DNA of 63,094 bases, the filler included, from Sluysia triapertura (taxonomy: Eukaryota): the NCBI GenBank assembly GCA_046118255.1. It is 5 parts of 5 records of this genome, joined end to end, with 100 filler letters (N's around TTAATTAATTAA, not from the genome) between each part and the next. Parts side by side here need not be neighbours in the genome. Positions count along the whole stretch, not along the records: positions 46,695 to 63,094 come from JBJNIA010204927.1; 4 more parts are not named here. One strand, written 5' to 3'. This document shows, one piece after another, positions 24,659 to 63,094 of this stretch. How positions within the stretch are numbered: the first letter of the stretch is position 1; each line of letters begins with the position of its first letter. The translations under genes were made by a program, and so were the position numbers. The notes below the pieces were generated by a model that did no database searches, was not told where the DNA came from, and saw nothing but the letters and a program-made list of their open reading frames with translations.

Positions 24659-25848
24659 ATAAAATTGCAAATGTTAACATAATTCAACTTTTTAATCATA
24701 AAGTTGTATACGGCCATCAAATTTATTATGTCAAACTACAATACAACTCAAATACCTAACTCCCAAAAATGAAAACACTTGTTGCAGAATATGCTGTGTC
24801 ATGTCAACACCGTAGTGTAAAAGGTGTTCAAATGCGCTGTTAGAGTTGAGAAAATATGTATTAGTTTGTATTTGTTTTTTTTTGCTCAAATAAACTAGTG
24901 TTTATAAAATTTTATCGAATGTATAGAAAATGGTCCACAGAAAATATCGACAAGATAGCATATGTTGTTTGAGTCACGGTCCACATGATAATTGTGGTAA
25001 TTGTTACTATTTCGAGTGCATTAAACCGACTCGATTTTATTGGAAATTTAATTGTTTTTCACATGGCTCTGTAAACTCAAAAGAAGATTAACATCATTGT
25101 GAATCATGAAGTGAATTCTAGTACCAAATGTTAGAATGACTTTCTGATATTTGAGGGCTTACATAATCCTTAACCTTTTTATTTCGTGTGTCTTTCGTCT
25201 GGAAAGGTAATTAATCTTAATTTTTATCCGTACTTAAATTCATAATATGATCTGTTTGGGTGTTTGATTTATCCTTAGTTCTTATACTTCTCTGAAATAT
25301 GCGTAAGTATTTTTAGGCTCGATTTAAAGCTGACTTTAACGAAATAATAATAACATAACAATAAATTATTAAACAAGCAATATAAAAAGTAATAAAACAT
25401 ATCGAGTTTATCTTTAAATGTGTAACTTGTGATGTGTACTAGTGGTACTAAATCATAGATATTATTAAAACACAAATTAATGTTAAAAAAATTTAACATT
25501 AATAAAACTAATAATAATTAACATTAAAAAAATCGCAATATCTAACACAACAAAATTTATTTATCGAATTCATTATTATTATTGTAACTAAACATCTTGG
25601 CAATTTTATTGTTCCCATTCTTATACTAATATATGATACATAACTAATACTTGGAACCAGAATGAGATTAGAAATTTATAGATAAATGCATGATAAAGGC
25701 GATTATTAACAACGGAAACAAACTACCTATTTCAAAGATTTATGCTCTAATAGCGACGTTAAAAATCGTATAATAAATAAAAACGATACAATATAACATT
25801 GTAGACTTTTTTATCATGTGTTTCTATGTACTAACATCAACTGACGTC

Positions 25849-37961: not shown

Positions 37962-39259
37962 TTGCAAACTCTTTTATATTTTATAATTTTTACAGTTGAA
38001 AAAATGTAAGGGTGTGAGAATACTTGTAAATTCTTACATGAAATTAAATGTTTAAGTTTATGAAATGTGACCATCTCACAAATGCATTACTACAATAAGT
38101 TATTAATAAGCTATTACTGCGCTAATATGAAATGAAACAGTAAATTCAAAATTTTATCTATATTTATTCAACATGTGGAATTCATTCCAATGAATTGATT
38201 TTAAAATCATTAAAGTACACAACCAAAAAAATTACAAAATCATTAAAAGTACAAAATCATAAAAAGAAATTATTTCATCGTACTAACATCATTGTTTAAT
38301 TAAAGACCAAATGTTATTTGTAAAACATGTCTACAATGTCCAATTTAAACAGCACCATATGTTCTTTATCGATCATTACGTATGGTACCACCTCAGTTTT
38401 CTATAAAAATGCAAACTCAAAATGTACATTATATAATTAATACTTTAAAATGAAATCAACAATTTATGTCTTGCTTGGATGTTTATTAATATTTACATGT
38501 AGGTATATTAATTGATTGTGAATATTATAATTACTTTTGTTTAGTTATTTATGAATTGGAAAGTGCCGAAAATCAACATGATGAAGGTTATATTTAAAAT
38601 TAAAATTAAACATTTTTCCAATATTTTTAAACATTATAAATTTGTACATATAAAGCCATTATTGAATAAAACTGTAATTCATATTAATTTTTAATTTATA
38701 TAATAAATAATTAATTATAATGACCTTTAGTATATATATTTCTAATGTAAACGTTATATTACTCGCTTCAGTATTAAAATTAATTGCTAAATAATTAGCA
38801 AATCTTAAATGATATATTGCATAAAATGATATCATTAAGATGTATAATGACATTAATAAAAAATAGTTTCGAAATGTGTTTAGAAAACAGTAATAATTTT
38901 AAAATATTAGTTTTTTGAAATATGTTTGCATTATAAACCAATCTACAATTCCAGATGATGCAAATAATGAAGGTGTACAAAGAAAGAAAAGATGTATAAG
39001 TATTGGAGGTCATATGTAAGTTTTAGTTTTATATTTTATGATATAATTTTACTATTGAAATTTTTTAAAATATTAAATGTATTCAGAGGTGTTGGATTTA
39101 ATCCATTTGATTACAAACGAAAGAAGTAATGACAAAGGAGATGACAAATTTGATGAATAAATAGACTTAAAATTTTGTTTTGAAATACAATAAATTTACA
39201 GAAATACTGTTGTATTATTTATAATACAAATAAGCAAAATACAATATTTTTATGCAATC

Positions 39260-39448
39260 TGTTAGACTTCGTAAAATGGACTGACTGGGGATCGAACCCA
39301 GGACCATTGTCTGCGCAGTCCGACTGCTCTACCACTGAGCTATCAGCCCCGTCTAACAATTTCATTTTTAATATATTCAACTATACTACTTGGCACTTTT
39401 TAGGCCTTTTACCCCAACACTATCATTATTCTAAATGGTACCTCAACA
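39260..39448 (-). mobile_element. tRNA-core element, copy 3 (best preserved; core 39277-39349)
   Basis: Reverse complement GGGCTGA-TA-GCTC AGTGGTA GAGC..CTGGG TTCGATC CCCAG-TCAGTCC-A has intact acceptor, D and T arms and A/B boxes, but a poorly paired anticodon arm. It is bounded by TGTTG(A/G)GGTA and GTCTAACA. Confidence 0.8.
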
Positions 39449-41365: not shown

Positions 41366-41956
41366 TATAATGAGTTGAATATGAGATGATTGCTATTAAA
41401 GAGTACAATCCAGAAGTGAGTTTGAAATGTTTGTAGAGTGGTTTGTTTGAGAATAAGAAGTTAAAATCATTTTCCATAAGGAAATTTGATGTGAAAAACC
41501 AAAAATCTATAATTTCTTAAAACTAAATTCATTATTTTTTTAATGTTATTAACAATAATAATGATAGTTATATTAATGTGAGAATTAATTTAAGTAAAAG
41601 TATATTGCGTAGAGTATAGGAAAATAATAAGTAATCGTAAATCAATTTTTTGTGTTTTGTAAGTAATAAAGTTTGACAGTCTGTACCATATAACTGTCAA
41701 AGTTATTATTGTCATATTAATTCTCAATGGATGTTGCAGTGATTTGTACGATATTAATTTGGGAATGATTCGATGATGAGAAATATAAAAGGAGTACTTG
41801 AGAACAAAATAACAATTAGTAATGTAGGTGAGATCACGTTTCAAGTAATATTATTTTGCATTGTGTTGGGAAATCTATTTTCATTATTAAGGGTTAAGCG
41901 TGAATAATAGTTAATATTCACCTTTGGTTTCTTGGGATATATTATTTTGTCCTTAT

Positions 41957-42112
41957 TATTAGACTTCGTAAAATTGACTGACCAGGGATCGAACCAGAGA
42001 CCTCTAACTGCAGTGTTCGATGCTGTACCACTGAGCTATCAGCCCCGTCTAACAATTTTATATTATTATATACAAATACACTAAATGGCACTTTAGGCCT
42101 TTTACCCCAACA
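41957..42112 (-). mobile_element. tRNA-core element, copy 4
   Basis: tattagacttcgtaaaa..ccactgagctatcagccccgtctaacaat..tggcactttaggccttttaccccaaca. Confidence 0.8.
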
Positions 42113-43177
42113 ATATTATTGTAAACATTGTTGTTATTTTTGAGATCTAGTCATTTTTATTATTGTATTTGATTTTGTAATTATTAAATTATTGTGCTGC
42201 TATTAATATAAAAAAATATTAAAATAAAAGAAATGTGATAATTTATACTTGATCTAGTGAATATTGAAATTACTGAGATTCTATTTAAACAAAGTGAACT
42301 GATATTGATTTATTGTTATTAATAATTTCAAAGTCGCAACAGATACATCACACAAATAATATGTGAATTTCAAATAAAACTAGAAATATTTGAAATACAA
42401 CATTAATGTCACAAGCAAAAGCCAAACTAAAACCGAAACTTCCATTATAAAAACATGCTATAAACATTATAGTTTTTTATCTAAACATTAAATGAAAAAA
42501 TCGTTAAAAATCAATAATTTTTAATCCAATTAAAAGTTACATACACATACAATACTTATATATATGATTAGTAATTTAAGTCTTTATAAAAATCAATTAT
42601 AAAATCAAAGTATAATATATAATATATAAGTACAATAATATATAAAAAAGATAACAAACAAAAATACATAAACACAAAAATTCCCCCGCGCCCGCAACCT
42701 TACACCGATTAGAATTAAAAAAACCGCTTAGAAAAATATTTATAAATCCACATAATATCTATATTGATTTTGATTAATGTGAAATAATAATGATGATGAT
42801 ATTCGACAATAGATAAATATTACTTTCCTAATGAAACGCGCGCTAACAAACCAAAATGAAAAATAGCACACATTTTTTAAAAATAAAACAACGTTAAATG
42901 AAACATTAAAACAAATCGAAAATAAATTAATAATAATAATAAACCGAAAAAACAAATAAAAATAAAAACCCTAGCTTACATTTCTAAATTGATTTGATGA
43001 AGCACGCAATTAAAAATAAAATTTAAATATTACATATTTTTTGCGAAAAAAGTCGAATAAAAAATTCAAAACAAATATTGTAAACATCTGTTCTTCTACC
43101 GGAAATAAAACAAACATTATGCTCAATAGTTTGAAACAAAATTCATTACGTTTATATCAGGTCATGTATATCGGATG

Positions 43178-44921: not shown

Positions 44922-45897
44922 CTAGAAAAATAAAATAATTTAAATAAACTGACAATTGATAAAATAAAATATTTATATTTAGAACTACAATTTTGTTTTA
45001 GCTAATCACGACTATGTTCCAACTTGTAACAAATCAGATTTCCTCAAAATGGAGGTTGTTAATATGATTTTACAGTGTTTTGCTAACTTGCAATGAATAA
45101 TAATATTATATTATAATAATAATAAATGTAGGATTAAATAAATTATGTAGAAAAGAATTTAAAATTGAATACAGCTTAAAAATGTTCGTATCATTACCAC
45201 ATACAACACAAACAACGATCAAAGTACCATCCAAAAAGCACCATTATTACACACCGAGCATAAGAAAAAATACTGTTTCAACCGATGACAGAGAAAGAAT
45301 GATCCAAAAAACACTTGAAGTATATATTCTACGGTAATATACGGTAAACCATACCAAAAGGCTAGATTTATTAGTGTCTCTGTACACTCTTGATTCACTT
45401 TTGTTAATATTTGCTCTTTCATTTCGAGCATAAGTTTAGATCTTCTATCACCTCCACATTTTCCCGGTGTACTATTGGATATCTTTTACCAGAAAATGCT
45501 TGGTTACATGAACAGATGTTATAATGGGGAAGTTTTATATTTTAAGTTGATTTTAACTTAAATTCTTTTTATATAATTTATTCAATTATTTAATTGAACT
45601 AAGCTTATATAATAATTCTGACAATAAATCAGTCGATATACGGTTTTTGTTGAATGGCCAGTCGAAGCTTCTAATTATAATTGTTTATAAATTTTAAATA
45701 GTAGTAACGATTTTCGAAGTCATGCTTCGTCGTCAGTGTGATCCTTTCCAAATTAATTAATATTAAAATATTCAATTTAATTTCAAAATAAAATAAATTT
45801 TCTATATTTATCGTGGATTATATACACATTACAGGATTCAATAGAAATATTTTCGTGTAGTCTGTGGTTATTAATATGATTTTCGACAAAGTTAATT

Positions 45898-46491
45898 TTA
45901 TGAGCATCAGTAAGTGGAGATTTAGCATGAATTCAGCCTCACAACTATTTTTTAATATTCTTCATACTGTTGTTTTATTGTAGTTTAGCTCTAAATCTGA
46001 CATTATGAGTTGTAGACAACGTTGTATTTTTCGCATACATTATTAAACTCCTTTTCTGGCGATTAGAAAGTACCCCATTGTTATTTATAACTATTATCCA
46101 AATAATTGGATATCGCATGTCTTGATCTGTTAAAACTTTTGGCAATACTTGCATTACTTTCCCTTTTTTGAGTTAAATAATATAATAGATGCCTGGAAAG
46201 ACTGAAATAAAAAATGTAAATACATTGATTAATTCGATGACAAAAAGGTGTGTAGGAGTATTGAAAATACTCAGGAATATCATTAGAATACTAATTTTGT
46301 ACAATATGTTTTATAGTCTCTTAAATAAAAAGTTTGTATAATGCGTATAATTTATTTGTAAAATTGGAAACTATAAATAAGTAATAGTTTATTCGTATTT
46401 TATTTATTAAATAGTATTGTTAATTTGTTATAAATTGTGTTTGTATATATAGCAAAAATAGGAGGTTGTCATATACTTTTGAAACAGGGTG
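45898..46491. mobile_element. Rearranged copy of the Tc3-like element at 3619-4867
   Basis: 45900-46145 is the reverse complement of ~3833-4076, while 46188-46345 is direct to ~4541-4690. It ends in the TIR ..tatacttttgaaacagggtg. Confidence 0.85.
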
Positions 46492-46594: not shown

Positions 46595-46694
46595 NNNNNN
46601 NNNNNNNNNNNNNNNNNNNNNNNNNNNNNNNNNNNNNNTTAATTAATTAANNNNNNNNNNNNNNNNNNNNNNNNNNNNNNNNNNNNNNNNNNNN
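46595..46694. other. Artificial contig spacer
   Basis: 44N-TTAATTAATTAA-44N. Confidence 0.99.
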
Positions 46695-47221
46695 TATGAA
46701 TTAAGAGATTGTGACTTATTTAAATTATAATATGTTTATGTGAGGTGTAAGGGATGTTTCTGCTGTGTATGCTACCAGTTAAGTTAGGCAGGACACTACA
46801 GTCAATACTTGGAAATTCCAGCATACGTAACAATGAGAGAACAATTACAGGACGCATGGAAGCGAGCAGGTCTTCAAAGTAAATACACACACGATAAGAC
46901 AGCAAAAGAACATACATTTAAAATATGTGACGAAATACTTATAGACTATCCAATATCCAATCTCCGAAATTAAAGGGCCACATCTAATAACGAGAGTTAC
47001 AGATACAAATGTGCTCGTTAAAGATCCTAATAAAATTAACTCTGAAACTTTTGAGCGCACGTCAACAGATGCAAGATTGCACCAAAAGAGTAATATAATC
47101 TAAGAAACAGAAAAGTACAAAAATCGAGATTGAAAGTTAAGCCGATGCACTACGACATAAACAAGTAATATTTATAATACAACCTCATAGAGATGACTTA
47201 ACTCACATAATGCAAAATGTA

Positions 47222-47523
47222 CGATTTAATGGGCAGTGGGTTAGAGCAATTATGGATACCGATGCTACTATATCAGTATTTCATAAAAACTTTATAAATC
47301 GATAAATTTATAAATTTATAAATCGACCAAGAACAGTAACATATAGCTTAAATCAAACTCCAATTAACATCAGCGGAACAGTACTATGTACATAGAAATA
47401 TTAGGACAATATGTGCATATTTTAGTAAATGTTTGGGACAGCAGTCCATATGAAGACATGGTCATTCACAGCAAATATGGTTTCATAAAAGTACCACCGG
47501 GATCAAATATAATTATACCGTAA
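47222..47523 (+). pseudogene. Retropepsin (LTR-element aspartic protease) remnant
   Basis: FNGQWVRAIMDTDATISVFH (D-T-G-A motif with G to D), then INISGTV..ILGQYV..SPYE; contains stops and frameshifts. Confidence 0.7.
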
Positions 47524-47582
47524 TTAATAGTTCCCTATAGTTGGCGATGAACTAACAGTATATCAAATGCCAATTTCAAATC

Positions 47583-48683
47583 CGTCCTTACAGTTCCAGA
47601 ATTACCATTACATCTACACTCAATTTGTCAGATGTATCATGGGGATCGCCACCAGCAATTACATCGGAAGAAAGTTCGGACTCATCAGGAATTGGTTCCG
47701 AAGTTCAAGGCACAATAATGATAATGGCTAATGAGAATAGTTTCCATAGGAATTGTTTTAAGAAAATAATTTATTGCTTATATGAATTAATTAAGTTTTT
47801 CCTATCACTAATAACCAACACTATAGCGACAGAAACAGATGAAGAATACAAGAATATGAACATCGCTATAAATCATGACAGAGAACGGAAAATAATGATC
47901 ACCGATATTTACAAACAATATTGGAAATTCGAATTTGTTTCTAAGAAAATGATTTTGCAACATGAGTTTGAGATTTATTGTATTTATTTAAAGCCGTTAC
48001 ATCATATAGACGGCAATCCACATTGTTTACATTATGGTTATAGGCCAATGCTAATATCTTTCTCTTTGGAATATGATTCTCAGAATGCCTCGAAGACTAT
48101 TTTAATACGATATAAAATAAGAACTAAGCCATTTATTTTTCAACAATCACCGACATATTATATTAGGACTAAATTGTATGTTTCTCGGCAATCGTGAACG
48201 TTAATAGAATCTCCAATGACCACTTATCGTTACCTCGGAAATGTCGTACGTATCCATAATCGATTGTACAATAACACATTATTAATTGCTTACGAACTAA
48301 TTGACGGTTTACGTTACGGAATGATATTGCCTAACGATACTATCCGCTTATATCATATTCCGAAAAATGTTTATCAAATTTTGGATATTAAGAGAAACAG
48401 AATTACATAGTTCAAATGGATTTTGGAAAAAATATCAGATATCATGATGTGCAAGTACCAATCAGAGAAATACGAAAATGACTCGGACACGGAATCAGAA
48501 AAAAGTTTAAGATCAATAACAACTTTGCGAATGTCTTATAATATGAACACGAATATAAGTTCAATCGCTACAAATATAAGTATGAGTTTAAGTAGGGAAA
48601 ATATTGAATGTCCAGCCATAATGAAATCTAACAATAATTTTATCATAACTATTAATTACATCTTAATAATAATTCTCTCGTAA
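47583..48683 (+). pseudogene. One ~365-codon orphan reading frame broken by two stop codons
   Basis: ORFs 47625, 48216 and 48423 are in the same frame, separated only by TGA 48195-48197 and TAG 48408-48410. Confidence 0.6.
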
Positions 48684-49024
48684 CGTTAATAATCAACTTT
48701 ATTATCCCAAAATTCTACTTATTAATTAGGTATAGAGCCCATTTTTCATATAAATTTTAACACATATTATATGCAATAGTTCTGCCATTCAGTGTGGGTC
48801 ATATGTGATATTAAAATCACGAGGATTAATATAAAAATAGTAAGGATTGTGTAATTGACTGTATGTGATGGTTTACCATACATTTTGAGTCATACACTAA
48901 CGTAAACTATACATTTATTCTTAAGTTTTAGGATTTTTAAGCTTTAAAATTTTTAATTTACATTACTAGTATTACGGAATTATTTATTATCTTATTATAT
49001 ATTTTTTATTTTTAGTACAAATTT

Positions 49025-49360
49025 ATGTCTTATTCAACCTGTGCTATCTGCCTTAGATCAATTCGGAATTACTACGCCAGAACATCACCATGCTTCCACC
49101 GTTTTCATTTTTCCTGTTTGTACAATCTCTTTAATACGTCCTTATCACCCTTACCTTATTGTCCTTTGTGTAGGGCTAATATTGTTGAACGTGTTATCTA
49201 TTTCAAACGTGTATTTCATAGGTCTATTTACCGTGTATTTACCATAAAGTACATAACTAGTCCTTCTGAAGAACCAGGTACTGACATTTACCAGCCTACT
49301 GCAAATAAAATAAAAAGAAATCTTAGTAAAAAGGATGGGTTAGGCCTCCTCCAATCATGA
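49025..49360 (+). CDS. RING-H2 (C3H2C3) zinc-finger protein, putative E3 ligase
   Basis: CAIC-x13-CFH-x2-H-x2-C-x14-CPLCR. A basic tail (QKRNRRRRQLK) in another frame runs to 49500. Confidence 0.85.
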   Translation: MSYSTCAICLRSIRNYYARTSPCFHRFHFSCLYNLFNTSLSPLPYCPLCRANIVERVIYFKRVFHRSIYRVFTIKYITSPSEEPGTDIYQPTANKIKRNLSKKDGLGLLQS

Positions 49361-49679
49361 TTCCGAACCTTACAAAATCTCAGAAGAGAAATAGGCGTAG
49401 ACGCCAACTCAAACATTTTTACAAATTACAAGAAGCTAATAAAAATAATGTTTCTAAGATGATTAATCCATTCTTAAAGAAAAGGCAAACAATTACCTAA
49501 AATCGTATAATTTAAAAGTATATAAATAAAGAAAACTTTTGTAATTAATTAATTATTATCTAACTTTAGTTTTGAAGCTATTGTATCCTTTCACCTTATA
49601 CAATTTTATTTTATAAATTATCTATTACTTCAGTAACACGCAAACAAAAATCTTAAACCAAGAGTAAAATTTTTACGTA

Positions 49680-50791
49680 TATATTTGATGACACGAGAAC
49701 ATCACGCCTGCTTTTTTCCCTGATCTGTATCTACCCCTAACAGCTTAAAATCCGAATTGGACATTAATCTCGCCACACATATCTTTGCTCTTACTCCCGA
49801 TAAATCTCAAATCTCATTAAGTGGACTACCTAATTTTCCTGATACTACAAATCTTTATATGTAGTAGAGAACCGCGGTGTCATCGAACTGATCCTCCTCG
49901 ACAACGGCAATATTGTGATCGAAGCTGCGGAATATCCCAATTCGGAATATTTTCAATGCCAACTATAAACTACCAGTCTTTTCTGCCAAATTTTTATAAA
50001 CAAAATTCGTTTAATTTGGAACGATTGAACAATGGCGTTTCTTTCACACATGCCCATGTCCCCTTACGATGAAGATCGTTTGATTTTTGTGGCTTATTCT
50101 TACGCGTTTGATTTCTTAAACCGGCCACATATCATACAACTGTCTTGCGTTCGTTATTGCTAGCAATTCCATTCAGATACTAATATTAAGCCGCGTTTGC
50201 GAAAACTATGTCCGTGATATCCAAGGTTTCAAAGATACAGATATTCTCGAAGCAAAGGACATTGATGATATCCTTGTTTCATCATCAAAATGAGTCATTA
50301 ATTTGACCAACCATAATCTTTTGTCTTACACCACTACAAATCCTATTTTGCGGGGCCGTCAAACCTTTCGTCTTCTTTATCCAGTTCCGCCAAAAATGGC
50401 TTCTCCCGTATGGCCTTTGAACTCATTTTACTTCTTGACTTAATCAGAACGAAGGACACTTCATTTATTTCTAATTGTTCTCCTCCTCCTCTTTTTCTAA
50501 TGTTCTCGTGGCAACTAATACATCAATCAATGCTAAAACTTCATCAATCGGATTGTCATCCTTTACTAATCAACCATGTCAGAAACCTTCAGCGTTCTGA
50601 CCAGGTCGATCAGTGATTGAACTGCTCATCGCCAAACCCAAATCGTATTCAGCTAAACGAACAAGTCAAAAGGAGGATCATCATCATCCGCCATCTCGTT
50701 CTTCTGTTCGGACTGATTTTGCATAAAACGATGTGGACTTAGATGATATTGACTTGGATGATATCGATTTAGACGACAATGATTTTTGTTA
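49680..50791 (+). pseudogene. Decayed member of an unknown protein family ('ORF-X'), with an acidic C-terminus
   Basis: NLTNHNLLSYTTTNPILRGRQTFRLLY / SRMAFELILLLDLIRTKDTSFIS, homologous to 52330-54390(-); ends DDVDLDDIDLDDIDLDDNDFC*. Confidence 0.65.
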
Positions 50792-50806
50792 ATTTTTTTG
50801 AGATTC

Positions 50807-51558
50807 GGGACAAATATTCCCTGATGGGGAAGTAATTGTAAATAATATTAATGTCAATATCAATATTTATGATAATTGTAAATAATATGTATTAAATTAA
50901 TATCTATGTATTAAAAATATAAAAACGTTTGTAAATAAGTATTTTAATAATAATATTTGTAAATAAAATTTAATCATTGTATTTTAATTAGAAAAAAATA
51001 ATATTTAACATAATTTAATATTTTTGTATAAAGTACCGAAATTCATAAATCTGACTCACATTTTTATGCTTATTTTTACATTTATTTTATCTATCTAGAA
51101 AATATTTATGCTTATTTTATGATTTAAAAATAATTTATTGAAAATTCATTGAAATTTTCATGATTAATTATTAATTTATAATTTTATAATTTACAAAAAC
51201 TTATATTTGTGTTGAAATAAAAAGAGATAAAGAAGGTCGGAGACACAAGTGATATATTGATTACGAATTACTGGAAAACATTGTACTAACTCGGTTATTT
51301 TTATCTGTGTCGGTGTTATACCGTGTGATCTAAATTACGAAATTGAAGAGGATTGATTTGGAAATTATTCGATAAAAAATATCGTACAAGGATTCACCAC
51401 AAATATTCAATTTATTTATTATATGTAAAAACAAAGTAAGCTAATATTTATTAAGATTACGCTTCAATAGGTAGCGTCAAAATCTTACTTAAAATCTCAA
51501 TATTTTAAATCCAAGTATTATACCTGGATTAACTTATTACTAAAATCATCCTACAACA
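50807..51558 (+). mobile_element. Putative polypurine tract plus 3' LTR (TGTAAATA from 50837; end uncertain)
   Basis: gggacaaatattccctgatggggaagtaat-TGT directly after ORF-X; candidate end ..catcctacaaca. Confidence 0.5.
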
Positions 51559-51802
51559 ATAAAGAAGTTAATTCTTTAAGTATAACGTTTTATCATTGTT
51601 ATTATAATATCTTATTTGTGTTTTATATTGTTGATAATTGTGTTACACTTTTGTACGGAATAAATTTAATTATTTTGAATTTGTTATTATTGTCGTTAAA
51701 ATACTAAAGTTTCAAGATTTTTTGATTAAAGTTGTAATTATAATTGATAATAACTTTTAAATTAATTATATAAGAATTTCCCGTTGAAATAAATAAAAAC
51801 AT

Positions 51803-52148
51803 TGTAGGAAGTCTCCAGTTAGAATAATAAAATTTACGATTAGTATATAAAAACTTTCTGTTTAAATCGAAATTACTTAAGTCGCAGTGTAAACCTTATA
51901 AAAGCATTTAGCTTAAGTCAAAAGATTGTAGGAGTATATTTTGCAAGAAAACTCTACGCTGCTTAATAAACATAAGGTGTATTGATTTTTAGGAAAAAAC
52001 TGTTATATTGTTAAGGGAACTTTGATTGTCAAATTCTATAGCTATGTCTACTACAGACGAACCTGTTTAATTTCATAATTGTTTACAAGATAAAATAAAA
52101 TCTTAACAACCTCAACAAATATTTCCCCGCACAGGAAGATTTGTTCCT
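51803..52148 (-). mobile_element. Putative polypurine tract plus 3' LTR of the oppositely oriented element (TGTTGAGG at 52117 to ..TTCCTACA at 51803)
   Basis: Reverse complement aggaacaaatcttcctgtgcggggaaatatt-TGT, homologous to the junction at 50807-50839. Confidence 0.5.
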
Positions 52149-52329
52149 ACAAATCAATAGTAATAAAAACTTAAAAAATGTAGAATAGCAAATATATGTA
52201 ATACAAAATTACTATATAAATATATAAAATATCAGGATAAAAAATTAAAACGTAAAACATAATAAACAAAAACTATAAAAATATGAAAGCCCTATTGATC
52301 AAGAATGTTGATAAATTATAATATTACTA

Positions 52330-54385
52330 ATCAGCATAATATATCATTTGAGTCAATGGTTCTGGGGAGCTGCAGGCGTAGGAGTCGATGTAAAGTTGAT
52401 CTATAATTGTGTATATGAACAGTTAGATTGATAAACAGCAGATTCAGCAGACATCGAATCACTGTAGTGTCATATTGGGATGACTGTTGGACCAAATAGA
52501 TTGGGATGTGGCAAAGAACTCGAAGAGAGCAATGAAGGATCCTTACTTTTTAAGAAATCAAACAAGACAACTAATTCAGAGGCTAATCTAATGGTGTTAA
52601 AAAGCGACAGAGAGAAATACAGAAGTTTCAGAATCTGTCGCGCTCGAGCCAGAATGTCCATGATAGGCAATGATAACAAATTGTGGTTTTTAAGATTTAA
52701 CAGTGAGATTAGGATTTAAAGAAAGCAAGTTTTGGTAAGGGTTTATGATTTGAAAAGAGTTTATTATAATTAAAATGGATTGAATTAAAGTTTATAAAAT
52801 TATCATTTATATCATGTATATACTTCATAGAACCTATTCTTATTTGATAAAAAGTTCCTTTACAATAAGAGATAATTCTTATGAAATCTTTACTTATATT
52901 ATTAGCAACATTTTTATTGTAAGTGAAACACTTATGAATTCCACAAAATTTGACTTTAAATAAATTATATAAAAGGCTCAACAACATATAAGTATATTCT
53001 AAACTTTTATTAAATGTAAAAGCTAAGATTATTATATTTGATAGTGTATCCTGATGTACCCCAATCCGCCGCGCTCCAAAAGAATCATCTTTCTAATTTC
53101 TCGTTTATGAACCTTGAATTTAATTTGTTTTTCTAAAAGATAAATTTTGTACAACTTTGGAGATTGTGGAGGTGAACACGTAATTTTAGGACTAGATTTA
53201 ATTTTTGATATCGATTGTGTCTTTAAGATAATTCTAAGCATACAGATGATCTAATTGTAAGAAGATTTACTTACTAAATATACATCATGATTAGAAATTA
53301 ATGGTACAATAATGGGATCACTAATAAGAACGACTTGATAAGTATTTATAACAGATATTAGAGTAAGATTAGCTAAACGATCCGTAATATTTTCTTTAGT
53401 TGTACTACTTCGAATATCAACTATACAGACGGCTTTATTTTGTTGATTTACTTTACTCGATTTAACTGAATAAATCAAATCATACAAACTATTAGACACA
53501 ACACTCTGCTGAATCGCATAAGTGACTCGAACCAAACTAAACTTTAATTTATTAATTTTAGGATCCTCCTTTACTAAAAATAACGGTAATTCTAAACCGG
53601 ACTCTTTAAAAATTACAGGTAAAACAATAAGGTCTATTAAGAATTTTATTTGTACACGATATATTATTAGATAATTTTGTGATCTTAAATCAATTACATT
53701 TATTGATTTAATTTCGTTCAATACTTTTAAAGATTTTGTTCTATACAATAAAGCTAAATCGTATAACTTTAAGCTTAAAATGGGTACTAGACGTTTACAA
53801 ATCTTGAAATAATACTTAATAATGAATATGACGAATTAACAACAGCATTATCATAAATAATTCTCAGTTGTTGCCATTATTCATTCGTTGATGAAGACTC
53901 AATCGTAATATCATCATTTTCATTCGGATAAAATCCTACTAATAACTTTAAGATTTTATTATCTTGTGAAAATTCGTTCCATGACAACTCTGTAATAGGA
54001 CTAACAATTTGAAATTAATCATGAAGAAATTTCCTATATTTATCAATTAACTTTGAATTGCAAACATTAATGATTCGACTGGATTCATTTTCTGTATTAT
54101 TTTTGTCATCTGCATCGATAAAATTATCATAACTAGGCCGACAAGGACAATGAATACCAATGTTTAATAATAAACTTGTTTGTGTTTGCTTGTAATTTAG
54201 TTTTATTTCAGATAATTTTTTAATTGAAAGATCGTTATTTCTATTATGTTCCAGTTATTCGATACGAGTTTTTCTTAAATCTCTCATCTGTTCGACGTTA
54301 ACACGAATATCCGAATTGTCACTGTAGACACGACGAAAATTTGAAGTTTTCGTTTTGCAACATTGTCCGCATACAAAAAGATACT
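52330..54385 (-). pseudogene. Long (~680 codon) decayed ORF-X family gene
   Basis: Near-continuous minus-strand reading (ORFs 53251, 53032, 52709 and 52470, plus 53800-54380 with scattered TAA stops). It includes NLKNHNLLSLPIMDILARARQILKLLY..IRLASELVVLFDFLKSKDPSLLS. Confidence 0.65.
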
Positions 54386-54451
54386 AATAAAAATAATGAT
54401 TTTTATTTTGTAAAAAATTACTTTCTTTCAGATGATGACCAGTGATTAGTT

Positions 54452-54599
54452 ATCCAACCAGAATTCTCTATCTGTAAAGTATTAAACTTCATTCTGGTTG
54501 GATGGCCAGTAATATGCATGGAATTGGCAAACTAACTGTAGTGAGTGATTAGCCATCATCAGTGTTGACCGTGATGAAGAATGTCAACACTGGTTATGG
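54452..54599 (-). other. Twin-hairpin element, copy B
   Basis: atccaaccagaat (54452-54464) / attctggttggat (54491-54503), and ccatcatcagtgttgac (54553-54569) / gtcaacactggttatgg (54583-54599). Confidence 0.85.
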
Positions 54600-56467
54600 T
54601 AGTAACAATTTATAATGCTTGAAAATAATTACTGAATTTTTATGTGATTAAAATGATAACTTGATAATCATAATAACAATAACAATATTGCTATTATTAT
54701 TATTAACGAAAAAAGAAAAATGCATAAACCTCTTATCTTTTACTTATACAAGATCTTTCTGTGGTTTTCTTCAATTTTTAAACATATTTTAAATATATTC
54801 TAATAAATTTAATTGTACTTAAACTAAAAATCTTTGTGTAAAAGTTTTTATGGTTATTAATTTACATAAATTGCTGAATTCTTTAAAGCTATACACGATC
54901 TTCCTTTTGAAACTAATAATCTTTGAGTACAGAATAGTTTGAATGAATTTATATGTGTGATTAACGTTTTAAGGTATGATAGTATTTCTTATGCAATGCA
55001 GAGAAATGCAGAACACTAGAATGAACTTTTAGATATTGACTTATGTCTTTGTGTGAGAGTAATATTTGAATATTGGAAGATCGTGATTAAAAGACCTATT
55101 GAGAAGAGTGTAATTTGGTAAACGTGAAAAGGTAAACTATAATACAATTCTTGGTATATTTGAAATATTATTGTGCAATGTATTATGTGATTTGTTTATT
55201 TGTTGTTTTTGAATGGTATTGTATTGTGTTGTTGGTGACGATGCAATGACATATGCTGAATTTAGGTGTTGTAATTGATTCGAAGGTGTAAAGTAGATAA
55301 TTTCAAATGAGGATATTATTTAGTTATTATGGATTTCGAGTTACATGTTTTTGATAGATTTGTCGGTGTAAGTTGATGGTATTAGATGTAACTGTGGTTT
55401 GTATATTATGAGATTGCGAATATGGCTTAGTTTAGGCAAATGAACTGTTTTGTAAGTGTGTAGGAGGTAAGTGTGTGAATATCAAAGTGTTGAAGGTTTA
55501 ATTAATTATAAAGGTTATCCACTACACAAGTAAATACTGACGAGTTTTATTTCCTTTGAACTCAATAAGTTTCCTTCCGACAACTCATGAATATCCTTCA
55601 AGAAATTACGGATCCTTATTCTAAGACGTATGCGAAATTCCGTATGAAACGGTCAAGAATAAGGCATACAAACCATTTGAATGATATGCGGTTTGTCCCT
55701 CACATCAATGGCATGATAAAGGCGACGAAGATGAGCTTCTCTTCGTCCTTGTATGGAGAGTTTTTCTATGTTTATCATTTCAATATTAAGAAAATTTTTG
55801 ATAATGTTGATATTAACTATTTGTAGGTTAACTCTTTCCTTAAAATAATCAACAGTTAACTCAGGAATAATGCCTTTAACAAGATTTATAAAATTTAATC
55901 CAAACAATATAACTAAATTAACGAATGTTGTTATATTTATCAAAAAACAACCAAAATAAAATAAAAGTTGAAATAATAGGAGTAAACGTACGAATCAGAA
56001 TATACGTAAATACGGAGATATTCAGAAATTTTGAAATTAGCTACCTTTAAACTGAATATTACGAATGTCATTTGTACTAGGAAAAGTGCATAAGTAATAA
56101 GCGTTTGTACGAAGTTAAATTTTGGTAGATTATGTGTTACAACGTCAGTGATACATGAATTTTGACAGATACTGATCACATATCGTAGATCACCACTGTT
56201 ATTGAAATATGAATGTAAAATATTATTGTGGTTTTCAATGACTATAAAATAACTTAATAACTAATATAAATAGCGCAGATTGACGAATATCATTATAACG
56301 AATAAGTAGCAGAAATAATAAGAAATATATGCATAAAGATGAACATAGACACATACAAAGAGAAACAGCAAAACAAACATTATAACAATAGATATAAACA
56401 ATGTAACGACAATAGTTATCATAACAACAATCAGAATTATCGTCACGATAATGTCTATTATTATTGT

Positions 56468-56468
56468 G

Positions 56469-56524
<56 letters not shown>
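56468..56524. repeat. (AAT)n microsatellite
   Basis: Directly visible. Confidence 0.95.
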
Positions 56525-56525
<1 letters not shown>

Positions 56526-59100
56526 GTAAAATTATAGTGAGTATAAATTATTATGACTGTGTGTTTTGAATATATCAAGTAATCTATCAAATAAATATAT
56601 CAAATAAATAAATATTTTATTTATGTATGAAGTGTTGATTTGTGATGAAATGTTTGTGATATGTTGATTTAGAGTTCACGACAAAGGGGGCTCATGAGAA
56701 TAGGACATTCCAGGGGATACAGATTGAGCTGGCTCCGAAAAAAGAAGAGCAATAGAGCAATGAAACTCCTGCGCCTCAATGACTACTTTACAATTCCGAT
56801 GCAATTTTGTTAGGTACATAGAAGACAGCGAGTAAACTCTCTACAATCAGCTAAACTTTACACACAGAGTCAAAAGTACGATCTGTAAAGCATTACCGAT
56901 GATTAGCATTTTTTCTGAAAGTATGAGTCGATTAGTTTGCTCTGAGTACACAAATAACTTGGAAAGCAGGCGAGGTTAACTTCAAAAGTTGCAAATTGAT
57001 CGATATTCGTATAAAACATATGAATTTGAGGATTGTTCGTATCTATGTTATGAATTTGGTAATGATAATAGATTATTGTATTTATAAATTAAATTACATT
57101 TTTTGTTAACGGGAATATTTTATTACCATCGTAGTTAAATTACATTATAAAATTAATCATACCAAACTTATAAGTTAAACATTTGTACAAAACATTTAGA
57201 AACAACTTTAAAGAAATTTTATTATGATTAGTAGACACAAAACTATAATACGAGCCATTTATATTAACTAATACATCCTGAACATATTGGGAAAATATAA
57301 TTATTAGACACAGAAGAAAAATCACAATAGAAAACTAGAATAAAATATAAAAGATTAGAATAACATACCTTATGAGTCAGTGCTCATCTTTATATTAATT
57401 AAACGTAGTTCCCGTTTAACTTGTACACAATCTCTTTTGTGAAATCATTGTTTAATAAGTCACTGTATGTTACGATCATCGGTGTACCATGAAACGCAAT
57501 ATTGACAGTAACATGGGCGTAAAAATGAATTACTAAAAACATTATTGTTACTTCAGGATTAGTTCGAACACTTATATTATCTCTTTGTAGTCTAAGTAAA
57601 TAAACAATTGTTAATTTGTCCTGTTGGAGAAACAAAAGTATTGAACTTGTGGATTTACAAAATGTAATCTAAAACCATTTAACTCGATTTTTGAAATTTC
57701 GATATTATAATTATTTCTAAAAATATACTAAACTATGATCATAATGAAATTATTATGAATTAGAGATCAAATTGCTCAATGTATCAATACTTTGATGTAA
57801 CAAGGCTTCAGTGTTAATTTCAAATACTTCAAGAATTAAATCCAGCTTTAATTTCAAAATACAGGCAGCTCTAGTATAATTGCTTGTTTTCGTGACAATT
57901 ATCAATAATTTGTTTTGTTACAGAAACATGCAAATTTTTCTCAGTGTTGCGCCTTTCCAAAGCTTCAAGTCGAATTCGATGTTCAAAACAAATTAAAAAA
58001 TCAAAAAATTTTTTTACAATGAGCGTTTGAAATAATACTAGATACTGTAAAATTATTAAGATGGGTACTAAATAAAGCCACTTTTGAATATACAGCTTGA
58101 GGATTTATGAATTATCGAATTGATCAGGATTTGAATGACATTGTTGTAAAAAGTTATGATTCAGAAAATTTACTTAATCCAGAAAATTGAATTAGAAATA
58201 AGCATTAAATGAACTAATGCTCTGAAATATCAAATAGTACTTCACACTTTGTTTGTAGAACTTGTTAATTGATCTGTTAGATAAAAAAAGTTAGATAGGA
58301 AGTTAAGGAGATGTGAAAATGAATGAGAAAGAGTTATAAAAGAAAGTTAGTGGAATTGAAGGTGTTTAATGGAAAGTTCATTTAGTTTTATTTTTATATT
58401 TTAAAATGTAAGTTTAGTAAATTTTGATGTGATTTATATGTTGTGGTGGTCAACCTCTCGTTAAAATTTAAATAATAATTCCAATTACATCATTACACTC
58501 ATTAACATTTTACATTATTACCTTTTCATAATTCACCAAATCCTTTTTTTATTGTACATTTTTTTAGATCCATTAAAACCATTTTTTATACTTCACAACA
58601 TTTTAAATTCACAATTTTAACACAATCATACTTACATTCAAAACCATCAATGTACACATAAAAATTCATTTATAACATTTTATTCATTATCCAATAACAT
58701 TAGAACCACAATTACATCTTAAATTATCATTGAAAACACGAAAATTAATTCAAAGCATTACAAATTTACGATCCTTCAACACTCAATCATTAACACCTTG
58801 AAAAAAATGTAACGCACACTTCAAAACCAATCTAAGCATTTTTATACAAATAAAATTTCAACTCATTTCATACGTAAGACAGAATATAAGCAAAAGAAAG
58901 TTTATGTTATTAAAGAGATTAAAAGAAATTAAGTTTATGCATTGTGATTTTATTTTCTTTATTTATATTATTATTAAGTATCATTATTTACTTTTATTAT
59001 TATTATTTTATCGCATATGTTATTATTATTGTTACTAGAATTAATTTTAGTGTAATAATTTTTTGTGTCTAAATGTTTGTTTAATGTAAAATTTTGTTTC

Positions 59101-59343
59101 GACTTTTTCTAAGTCTTTGAAATCTTATACGTTGTCTTTTTTTAATTTTATTTTATTAAGTCTTTATCAAATTTAACTGTCTATTTTATACTTTTTTATA
59201 CTCTAAAAATCCTAGCTCTATATTATTAATTCAAATCTCTATTTATAATTATTCTGAACTTTAATTTACAATATCACTTTAACCTTAACTGGAGGTATGA
59301 GTTAATATACTCGTCCTTGTTGTTTAGGATAGAAGTGCTTAAT
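59101..59343. repeat. Second copy of the 25849-26062 repeat
   Basis: gactt(c/t)ttctaagtctttgaaat and the near-identical ~60-nt core at 59284-59343. Confidence 0.85.
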
Positions 59344-60388
59344 AATTTACCGATAATAAATACGCAATTATGCACTAATTAACACTCTAATATAGGTATT
59401 TAAATTTCAACCCAATTATAATTTCTTACAACTTAATGACTTATTTTCAATACACTCTATTTAATTCCTGGGTTCTACTCTCCCAAATAAAAATTAAGGT
59501 AACGAACATATACTTTATTTATAAATCGAAATAAATCAAAAAAAATTTAATAATATATAAATTTCCAATAATAATAATAATGTTGGTATTTATAAAAGGC
59601 AATGAATAAAAAAAACTTACACGATGTCTGAATGGAGCTGTCTGCAATATTCAAATCTAATTATTCATAGCATAACTACAGAACAATAAACATAATATTC
59701 GAATAAGATTGACTGTAGAACAAATGAGATGACATAGTAACGTACTATTCAAATCGAATAATTAACTTCACTAAAAAGATTGGTTCACCAAATTTTTGTT
59801 TTCCTTTTATACTATTTTACGCAATTTTACAATAATAATAATACAATCAATAATAAATTTATAACATAATTTTTTCATTAACAAATCTATCAATAATAAT
59901 ATAACATAATAAATTTATACAACTTAATTTTCTTATGCAATTATAATGCATAATTTTTTACCTACAATAATATAAGAATAATGTTAAATATTACTATTCA
60001 TTGCTTTTTAAAATTAGATTATGTTACATTATCATCATCGTCATTAGCATTGCACAAATGACATTTTTAATTACAATTTTGATATAATTGCTGTTACTAC
60101 CACTATCCATATTGCAGTGATATCAGTCTTTCGAGTTGTATGAATTATTAACTGTCATCACTGACAATCACTATCAGTGCAACTTGTGTCGTCGTACATT
60201 ACTTACTGGCTATCCAATCAACATTGATATCATAAAGCGTTTCTCTAAAACTAAAAGAAATTTTATTGGTCTTTTTATTTAAAGAATTTAATCGACTCAC
60301 ATTTTATTAATATATAAAACTAGTTTTAAAAATTTAGTTACATTAAAAAATAAATAATTTTTATTTAAAAAGAGATAACATTTACGAC

Positions 60389-61345
60389 ATGGCTAATAAA
60401 TTTTGGAATGGTCCTCATTATCTAGAATGTTCATTTAATAAACAAAATGTTTTAAAAAATCATCATAATTATATTGATAAATCAGTTAATGTAAACGAAT
60501 GCAAATATTTCAAAAAATTTTTTGATGATATAAACTTTTTATTCGATAATCAGTTAAGGGTTCAACTACAAGTTTCATCGACATCAGTGATGTATTTTAA
60601 AATATCCCATACAATGTATTCTGTAAAGTGCAATAATTCATGGCTACTAGCGCCCATAACTTTATTCTTAGTACCTAACAGTAAAGAGTTCAATCTGATC
60701 CCTCAAAGAAATTTTCTCATACTGGCTACAACGTTAACTGTAAAATTGTACAGGTACGTACACAAGAGTATAATCAATTTGCATTAGATGAAGAAATCAT
60801 TAGTATGCATAACATTTTATTAGATGATAATTGTAAGTAAGGTAGATGTATCACAAACTACCAATCACTCTGAGAAAGAAGTTGTTGAATCTATGTTTCC
60901 AGTTGATGAGGTTATAATAATTTTAAATACAAGATTAGCAGCAGACATGATAAAGCTAGTAATGATAACACAACTGAGTGTGTTAAGATTCTACAATAAA
61001 GCTATTTTAATGAATGACACAAGAGTAATTGGAAACATCTTGAATATAAAAATATATATGATAACTGTTCCTTTCCATGCTTACGATGAAGTCACGAATA
61101 TTAGTCTATTATATTTTCCAATCACTATTCCCAGAAACATTGATGATATTAACTTTAGCACGATCACAAGCAATTCATCAAAAACCATGTCAATGAACAA
61201 TTTTAATCCAATGCAAGTAATTAAGGATCCAATGGAAATTTTACAATGTCCACTTCAATCCAGCGATACCGGACTATGCATCAAAGCTGATTCAGCCTAC
61301 AAATATTACCTCACTGTTTATCAAATAAGTCGGTGTCGGGGCTGA
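60389..61345 (+). pseudogene. Orphan reading frame (ORFs 60389-60787 and 60824-61345, same frame, two stops between)
   Basis: In-frame ORFs downstream of a degenerate twin-hairpin copy (60090-60225); no family recognised. Confidence 0.45.
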
Positions 61346-63027
61346 TATATCGTTATATAATAATCATCAGGAACGTATAAAAAAGCTAATTGAATCAGTA
61401 CTTGCCAGTATTTCAACCAACACCACATTTCTATGATGAAGTCAAAGACAAAACATTAAAATAATTAGGAATTTTTATATTCACTTATCGACTAATCTTG
61501 ATATTTTTTGTTTTAGGATACTACAATCCGATGAAGACATGGTGATGTATAAGAAATGGAGTACGCCCTATAATCATCATAACATTGTTGTTAATTTTAA
61601 ATTTTTCTTAAATAAATATAATTCAATGTCTATATTGTTTCTTATTAAAGCTCAAAAATTAAAATTCAAATTACTAAAATTAAAGAAAAGGATTAATACA
61701 ATTTATATAGAAGATAAAATTTTCACAGTTAATATAAAAGACAAAATTGTTTATAATAAAAATCTTCATATTGTCGACTCCAACAATATAATCCTACATA
61801 TGTTATGAAGATATGCGTATTGGTGTGTTGTGGGATATTAAAATTTTATGAGGAAAAAAACAATAAAAGAAATACATATAGATATATAATACTACGAAAT
61901 TGTCTAAGTTTTCTTTTTATATTGTAATTACAAATTCAAACATTTTTACAATATGTTTTAAGAAAGTTTTATTGTCTCTTCTTCTTAAGGAAAGGGTTCA
62001 GTGTTTTAGGCATTTGTACTTTATAAAAACACTTAAGTTGGCATCGACGCCTAGCGAGTTTTTGCTATTTAGAATGACCAGGTGTAATAATAGGATCTGG
62101 CCGTTGCAATATGTGTGCATCAGTTGATTGCATCTAACTGCTTTTGGCTGAATAATGTTGACTGATGCGTTGGGTTCTAACACGTTTAAAGGTTCTTCGA
62201 TGGAATCGAAAGAGGAAACATAAGTAATTTCGAAATTATAAAAATGACGAAGTTTTTGTCGATAAAAAATTTCACACCTAATTTTTTGGGCTCAGAACAT
62301 CAGACAAGAAGGTGTAGGTGCAGATTTAAAGAGGAAAGACAAACACCGGAAATGAAATCGGTGAAATATACGATTGCATAAAATTCTTAATTGTTCTCAA
62401 ACAGATAGAACGGAGAATTTCATTATACCAGCAACTCTTATGAATTCAGTCAGGAAAACTAAACTAAATAAAAAAGTATAAGTTAATATACTTAATAACT
62501 AACATAACTTATATAGGTTAGTTTTATATTTATTATAAAATTATATATCTACATCATTATTTGTCAGCGAAAGTATTGTCCGTAATGAATGGGGATTAGC
62601 CACCGCACATGGTCAAATATCGTTTGGGGAATACACTTAAGGTTAGACTTTTAAAGGTAGATGATTGTTAAAAGTCAATAGACACTAAGTTCTATGAAGC
62701 TGTGTTAAAAAGTTAAGGCTAAGAAAAATGAAAAGGAATACTAAAATATAACTGTGAAAAAATCTCGTTCACGCATAAGATATAAAATATTTTCTTTTTT
62801 CATTATTGTATGAGTACATTTATATACTAATTCATAATTCAGACGTTAGTAGTTTTTAATTTATTTTTTATTTGTTTTATAATTAATCTTTATTTATTTT
62901 TATTTTAGGTAAAGTCAAAATTCGGAAATGAGTGAGTTTTTAATTAATTTTTTTTATTTTATAATTAATCTGTATTTGTTTTCTATTTAAGTAAGACATT
63001 TAGAATACGTTTTAATTAATATTTTGC

Positions 63028-63094
<67 letters not shown>
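63028..63094. repeat. (ATT)n microsatellite
   Basis: Directly visible. Confidence 0.95.

Follow-up and report, generated by a model that had tools for sequence, protein, structure and literature searches.

Two decayed, probably Ty3/Gypsy-type retroelement copies with a RING-H2 and ORF-X cassette in Sluysia triapertura

Extra open reading frames (ORFs) between pol and the 3' long terminal repeat (LTR), in sense or antisense orientation, are well described, as in the plant aORF-3S/3R (PMC7264820). Retand is a Gypsy element with an additional ORF (PMC11963269), and the bdelloid elements Juno, Vesta and TelKA feature an ORF3 after pol (PMC5408684). The giant planarian Gypsy element Burro/GYPSM1 occurs in thousands of copies and harbors accessory ORFs, with ubiquitin-related extras that include a RING-type AIR1 motif (PMC6431247); Burro elements are rich in ubiquitin- and apoptosis-related extras (PMC6431247, PMC11410931, PMC8532177). 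They encode a single ORF of ~4,900 amino acids with Gag, MATH/BIR/BCL2/ankyrin, Env and a protease (PR)-dUTPase-reverse transcriptase (RT)-RNase H (RH)-integrase (IN) block, in the order Gag-(extras)-Env-PR-dUTPase-RT-RH-IN, and a protease after integrase goes unmentioned in the available part of PMC6431247. Env-bearing elements of flatworms place env before pol (PMC13524379), a region that is invisible in the copies described here, in which the 5' part is missing. Here, we analyze two convergent units with accessory genes in a 63,094-nucleotide stretch (the window; GC ~25%) of the animal genome of Sluysia triapertura (GCA_046118255.1; positions 46,695 to 63,094 from JBJNIA010204927.1).

The two units are likely dead, tail-to-tail copies from diverged subfamilies of a single Ty3/Gypsy-type LTR retroelement group, each with a 3' accessory cassette, RING-H2...ORF-X, between pol and the polypurine tract (PPT) and 3' LTR. 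The plus copy reads integrase C-terminus, retropepsin-like domain, orphan ORF, RING-H2, ORF-X, PPT and TGT, and the order of RING and ORF-X is kept in both copies (Table 1). Accessory ORFs downstream of integrase or within LTRs are of an already known kind; the new part is the complete order from integrase through the retropepsin-like domain, orphan ORF, RING-H2 and ORF-X to the PPT and LTR. An earlier note on this DNA had proposed a new family in which accessory genes replaced pol. Its reading of the locus as 3' ends of LTR elements carrying accessory genes stands, and the parts it listed for the plus unit are real (the retropepsin-like piece, an orphan frame of 375 codons rather than ~365, RING-H2, ORF-X and PPT). 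The replacement of pol does not hold, as integrase is present and the remaining pol would sit in or beyond the assembly gap. The locus is dead, the pol-free family fails as a headline, and the element behaves as a Ty3/Gypsy LTR retrotransposon with accessory genes, not as an RT/integrase-free family. Likewise, an element without integrase or RT between its LTRs, as in the non-autonomous LARD/TR-GAG type, is excluded by the integrase remnant.

Relative to Gypsy elements with extra ORFs, the window elements share a GPY/F-type integrase C-terminus, family-specific ORFs, a PPT and an LTR, and both include decayed, non-autonomous derivatives. They differ by a retropepsin-like domain after integrase and at least three extra genes, of which ORF-X and the orphan frame match nothing; the term "RING" has no occurrence in the available parts of PMC5408684 and PMC6338049. 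They resemble Burro in high copy number, accessory ORFs, a RING extra, decayed fragments and a low-GC genome; no BIR, MATH, BCL2, ankyrin or Env family was matched in the scanned ORFs of the visible 3' part. Gmr1-like Gypsy elements have a moved pol domain in common with the window element, but Gmr1 integrase lies downstream of protease and here it is upstream of the protease-like domain (PMC2774666). The closest sequence relatives found are two metagenome loci, L001 and L002, with an integrase C-terminus ~32% identical and the same motif order; downstream of integrase, both encode a long ORF whose C-terminal end includes a hydrophobic stretch (~520 amino acids, no Pfam match; 1475-3049 in L001), and they hold no protease, RING or ORF-X match.

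Gypsy membership is indicated by the integrase GPY/F module and by a PPT that adjoins a 3' LTR starting with TG. The frameshifted integrase C-terminus (46794-47090) aligned by tblastn to L001 at 32% over 88 columns, and the L001 and L002 alignments cover residues 7-79 of the X-read piece (E 7e-11 and 2e-10). The domains Integrase_H2C2 (E 3e-14) and rve (E 2e-11) sit in L001 just upstream of the matched part. Against 300 shuffles each, two of the three frame pieces scored higher than every one, and the third (47055-47168) fell short on its own (38-41/300) but is in register. For the natural 61-residue integrase frame, the Atlas returned 30 look-alikes (top score 0.96; recognition value slightly under threshold), some of them in clusters where a minority of members are labelled MLVIN_C (23%) or SH3_Tf2-1 (13%). 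The piece was found through the Atlas and the metagenome scan only, with no match in Pfam, PDB or the word-index search. That scan yielded four loci, of which L001 and L002 align as above and the other two were set aside as chance (23-residue matches, high GC); the L001 integrase itself had no match in viral contigs. The core is lost to the gap, leaving the C-terminal module as the comparable part. The previous statement that no RT, RNase H or integrase motif is visible thus fails for integrase, and RT is out of sight rather than shown to be absent: the lack of RT and RNase H is uninformative because the N-gap ends the contig ~100 bp upstream of the integrase remnant.

At their 3' ends, the units carry two convergent PPT-TGT junctions whose homology, seen previously, is confirmed (local score 40 vs 22.1±3.7; 0/200 shuffles). 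A fuzzy pattern derived from both junctions occurs at only these two sites in the window and had no match in metagenomes. The hairpins once ascribed to them fold no better than shuffled sequence (z -0.38 and -1.13; 64/200 and 25/200 shuffles as good), and a functional hairpin is unsupported by this test. By contig depth, the sequences behind the PPTs are multi-copy rather than single-copy. The minus post-PPT sequence matches the first 300 bp of an insert, Y (below), in terminal register (score 87, 0/200 shuffles; z 5); the plus one has no significant homologue within the window. Both 3' LTRs are probably truncated because the PPTs lie only 1.28 kb apart.

A RING-H2 ORF had been claimed for the plus unit, and Pfam zf-RING_2 recognizes it (49016-49357; E 3e-9, 37.4 bits vs a cut-off of 27.3) with the C3H2C3 ligand pattern present; PDB matches are RING E3 ligases from E 5e-5, the best being cellular and herpesviral. 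It is homologous to the RING gene of the minus unit, which accordingly extends past the limit given in the earlier note. ORF-X homology comprises five colinear blocks (z 4.6-13.8; 50059-50500 in the plus copy), and none was found between the copies in the first 400 bp. Coding constraint between the copies shows in their differences: across 149 codons, mismatches at codon positions 1/2/3 number 58/39/94, in blocks picked, and to that extent biased, by protein similarity; 45 of the 77 identical residues use different codons. A homologous long ORF had been placed just upstream of each junction: the homology stands, but in the minus unit only the C-terminal part (52715-52314) is near and the N-terminal part lies past a 2.8-kb insert. 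Multi-copy depth and an intronless plus copy mark ORF-X as the gene of a repeated element, not of an intron-containing host family. A putative third ORF-X copy at 53092-52712 had no support in the homology search. Both copies stop at the same aligned codon (50158-50163 / 55653-55655), with TAG and TGA, respectively, probably by independent mutation.

Searches for relatives of the two other cassette proteins were blank. For ORF-X, 122 residues (49864-50229) of ~370 codons had no match among 1.84 billion representatives, and Pfam and PHROGs were empty. The orphan frame had 1023 candidates, none at E<=0.01, no usable match in the Atlas (residues 57-213 only), nothing in Pfam or PHROGs, and an AF2 single-sequence fold that is unusable (pLDDT 35). 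An env family matched neither the orphan frame nor ORF-X, both with broken frames and without a usable fold. A speculative but preferred reading makes ORF-X a non-envelope protein whose regulatory or counter-defence role selection has kept. Homology of the orphan to minus-unit frames at 56600-58440 was sought and none was found. At 47713-47725, three stops close the post-protease frame and overlap the probable orphan start (TAATG); stop-start overlaps of this type are a pattern of stop-restart coupling in some viruses.

The minus unit is interrupted by nested inserts: Z lies between RING (62367-61975) and ORF-X, and the break in ORF-X coincides with Y, with CAAGT on each side and a step in contig depth. 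Y and Z are homologous (128 vs 80.6±9.7, 0/200 shuffles; CCAAT-box segment, 1/200), and one 10-mer has exactly three occurrences in the 63 kb: one in Y, one in Z and one in a further unit, W. Target site duplications (TSDs) are visible only around Y and Z within the window. We infer that each is the solo LTR of a related element, with U3 carrying ORFs on the opposite strand; an origin as LINE 3' ends was dropped given TG..CA ends and TSDs. The ORFs at 52750-54470, formerly taken as cargo of the minus unit, instead belong to Y. The Y ORF had no viral relative, and its AF2 fold is unusable (pLDDT 34). A gap at 21899 cuts the C/A-rich end of unit W, the third of the Y/Z type (21900-24700, +). The unit then holds the 10-mer (22188), paired CCAAT boxes (22563-22611) and orphan ORFs (22798-24655) without a Pfam match. 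Between RING and ORF-X of the minus element also lies a low-copy stretch (56150-58440, -) with decayed frames at 58104-57399 and ~57100-56650 and no database match, either extra cargo of the minus subfamily or another insertion.

Table 1. Features of the two units and their inserts, in window coordinates.
Feature	Position	Strand	Evidence
Assembly gap (44 N, 12-base spacer, 44 N); removes 5' part of plus element	46595..46694	.	
Decayed Ty3/Gypsy integrase C-terminus: post-core helix, GPY/F-SH3 module, basic tail; successive frames	46794..47168	+	tblastn, shuffles, Atlas
Decayed retropepsin-like domain downstream of integrase	47141..47490	+	Pfam below cut-off; sister contigs
Orphan frame, 375 codons, 2 in-frame stops, probable start near 47720	47556..48683	+	
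RING-H2 accessory gene, eight metal ligands complete, basic C-terminal tail, broken after 49357	49016..49490	+	Pfam, PDB
ORF-X plus copy, frameshifted, acidic C-terminal tail, approximate start	49670..50790	+	
Pre-PPT motif, polypurine tract, TGT; LTR start at 50837	50807..50839	+	
Probable truncated 3' LTR of plus element; end undefined, no partner LTR found	50837..51450	+	Post-PPT position, multi-copy depth
Start of minus-element 3' LTR, colinear with first 300 bp of insert Y	51800..52117	-	
Pre-PPT motif, polypurine tract, TGT of minus element	52115..52148	-	
ORF-X minus copy, C-terminal part	52314..52715	-	z 6.2 and 6.5
Insert Y, 2796-bp solo-LTR-like unit, 5-bp target duplication CAAGT, ends ..ACA, interrupts ORF-X	52731..55526	+	
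Decayed opposite-strand ORFs in Y	53254-53835, 54018-54470, 52712-53092		
Paired CCAAT-box segment in Y	near 54470-54600		
ORF-X minus copy, N-terminal aligned part, may reach ~56150	55548..55759	-	z 13.8, 7.0, 4.6
Insert Z, TGT..ACA, 5-bp target duplication TATGT, Y homologue in opposite orientation, ORFs 60347-61342	58442..61798	-	
490-bp repeat inside Z	59085-59572		
Decayed RING gene of minus element	61975..62367	-	phmmer E 2.4e-6 and 5e-6; nhmmer E 8.7e-10

Contigs of a public run (X1, possibly the source sample, with 64% of the window's sampled words), aligned at 80% likeness to 46695-63000, indicate that all parts of both elements are repeated. Contigs identical to the window have a depth of 14-20, the single-copy level. 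Summed depth, which is not copy number and is inflated in AT-rich bins, is 117,322 at 46926, 45,532 at 47091 and 59,719 at 47235 over integrase and protease; 2,660 at 47652 and ~8,000 across the orphan; 117-233 for RING sites, 162-377 across ORF-X; and 11,922 at the PPT motif (50816, 36 contigs), 272-550 behind it and 450-17,650 over Y. This suggests, as orders of magnitude, thousands of integrase-protease ends, hundreds of orphans and ~10 close RING/ORF-X copies. Sister contigs also include deletion variants, with joints 46957>47747, 47941>48803 and 48923>49338 in one contig each.

The domain behind integrase is decayed in the window. In sister contigs, the integrase-protease adjacency recurs (one joint in two contigs plus a further row), the two domains share one frame when read by hand, and DT- and ILG-type protease motifs are seen by eye. 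Neither a dUTPase-like domain nor an RT start followed the protease in Pfam scans of three frames, and no RT was detected there in the plus copy by Pfam or PHROGs. Among viral contigs, six matches of 17-19 residues (L005-L010), none with the DT motif, were judged chance. No description of a protease placed after integrase was found in the literature searched, a body that excludes Repbase, Dfam and subscription papers, and none of the five integrase positions in LTR elements listed in the available text of PMC2774666 is directly before protease. Of three readings, we favor one in which the C-terminal protease is additional or relocated and RT lies upstream. More tentatively, and at somewhat less than an even chance, the locus may represent an abundant animal Gypsy lineage with an undescribed pol order, in which a working retropepsin is fused in frame behind integrase (RT-RH-IN-PR or IN-PR-RT), together with a conserved 3' cassette (RING-H2 E3 ligase plus two relative-less families) and ~2.8-kb LTRs with antisense genes, similar to a complex retrovirus.

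Several results weigh against reading the units as two Gypsy-type copies of one group. For neither main element is RT, RNase H, gag, a primer binding site, 5' LTR or TSD visible in the window, where the 5' ends are cut off by the gap (plus) and the window end at 63094 (minus). The two post-PPT sequences do not resemble one another (score 97 vs 98.5, 53/100 shuffles; first 200 bp, 8/200), and the match of the minus LTR to Y is the only one of 30 comparisons at 0/200, in AT-rich DNA, and was missed by nhmmer. TSDs with such ends arose by chance in 87 of 200 Y-type and 10 of 60 Z-type controls, and Z offers a second candidate pair; at this frequency, TSDs carry weight only in combination with the break in ORF-X, the terminal motif that Y and Z share, their homology and the 10-mer. 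The retropepsin-like piece (47141-47302) reached Asp_protease_2, gag-asp_proteas and RVP in Pfam at E 0.014-0.054, all under gathering cut-offs, and had no relevant PDB match. Finally, depth is ~20-fold lower just after the protease (59,719 at 47235 vs 2,660 at 47652), and most integrase-protease copies therefore continue otherwise or diverge more there.

That drop also bears on an alternative we consider unlikely, a permuted pol with RT loss, which modifies the idea of the earlier note. In it, an abundant master family carries pol as integrase-protease-RT-RNase H, while the plus copy is part of a non-autonomous offshoot with orphan, RING and ORF-X in place of RT-RNase H. The missing RT after the protease in the plus copy and the existence of deletion variants among sister contigs are both consistent with such a branch, but the drop may reflect lower conservation only, an integrase directly before protease is absent from the five positions in the consulted part of PMC2774666, and the closest relatives, L001 and L002, have the usual integrase > ORF3 layout. 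Still less probable is a chimera, in which template switching, or an old nested insertion plus a deletion, placed the protease region of one element behind the integrase end of a second, and the product was passively amplified with a functionless protease. In its favor are the nested insertions and deletions of the locus and the heavily broken window copy; against it, several sister contigs span the adjacency and, hand-read, hold the two domains in a shared frame and show catalytic-type and ILG-type motifs, and depth is of similar order on either side (45,532 at 47091; 59,719 at 47235).

A non-LTR origin, as a Maverick/Ginger-like DNA element or a segment of an endogenous DNA virus with a Gypsy-like integrase and cargo, is very improbable. 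Elements of the Maverick/Ginger type do carry GPY-type integrases, which counts in its favor, as do the orphan ORFs without relatives and the expansion of Mavericks in Dugesia (10.64898/2025.12.11.693146). The PPT-TGT junctions, the retropepsin-like domain and the TG..CA units with 5-bp duplications argue instead for an LTR element, and the scanned ORFs gave no polB, ATPase or capsid match; long terminal inverted repeats are absent.

Taking the units as Ty3/Gypsy copies, gag, RT and RNase H would lie upstream, in or beyond the gap, and, on established Gypsy biology, the family would have spread in the ordinary way, with reverse transcription, plus strands primed at the PPT and integrase-mediated insertion that creates 5-bp duplications. 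The minus copy was struck later by two related elements that left TSD-flanked units of 2.8-3.4 kb, presumably reduced to solo LTRs by LTR-LTR recombination. More speculatively, the post-integrase protease, extra or relocated, might process the polyprotein. Viral RING proteins degrade host factors as E3 ligases and, by analogy, the RING protein could act as an E3 ligase against a silencing or restriction factor of the host and cause its degradation. If kept under selection across subfamilies ~45-50% identical in protein, the RING ligase and ORF-X become candidate counter-silencing genes of an invertebrate transposon. Pol domain order is among the most stable traits for the classification of LTR retroelements, with few exceptions in the text available of PMC2774666; if true, a high-copy family with its protease behind integrase would join these exceptions and pose the problem of polyprotein processing.

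Outside the two units, the window harbors a strongly diverged innexin gene (20288-21539, +; Pfam E 1e-13 and 1e-12), in which a single short GT-AG intron is apparent by eye near 20790-20865; it has no close database relative at E<=1e-5. Its motifs, along with the low GC, would tentatively suit a triclad flatworm. Two further regions are host genes, namely an ArfGAP frame (11183-11872, +; GIT-like by eye, E 9e-11) and a P-loop helicase-like exon (3166-3627, -). A frame of 10-residue D/K/H/Y-rich tandem repeats with a 30-bp unit lies at 9761-10500 (-). Repeats include a tRNA-derived SINE-like family (17722, 16900-17054, 39239-39427 and 41937-42120), one copy of which ARAGORN called as a tRNA-like gene (39277-39349), and a second repeat that looks Tc1/mariner-like by eye, present as two decayed copies at 3620-4867 and 45765-46490. 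Finally, beside the gap at ~46520 is a hAT-like terminal motif.

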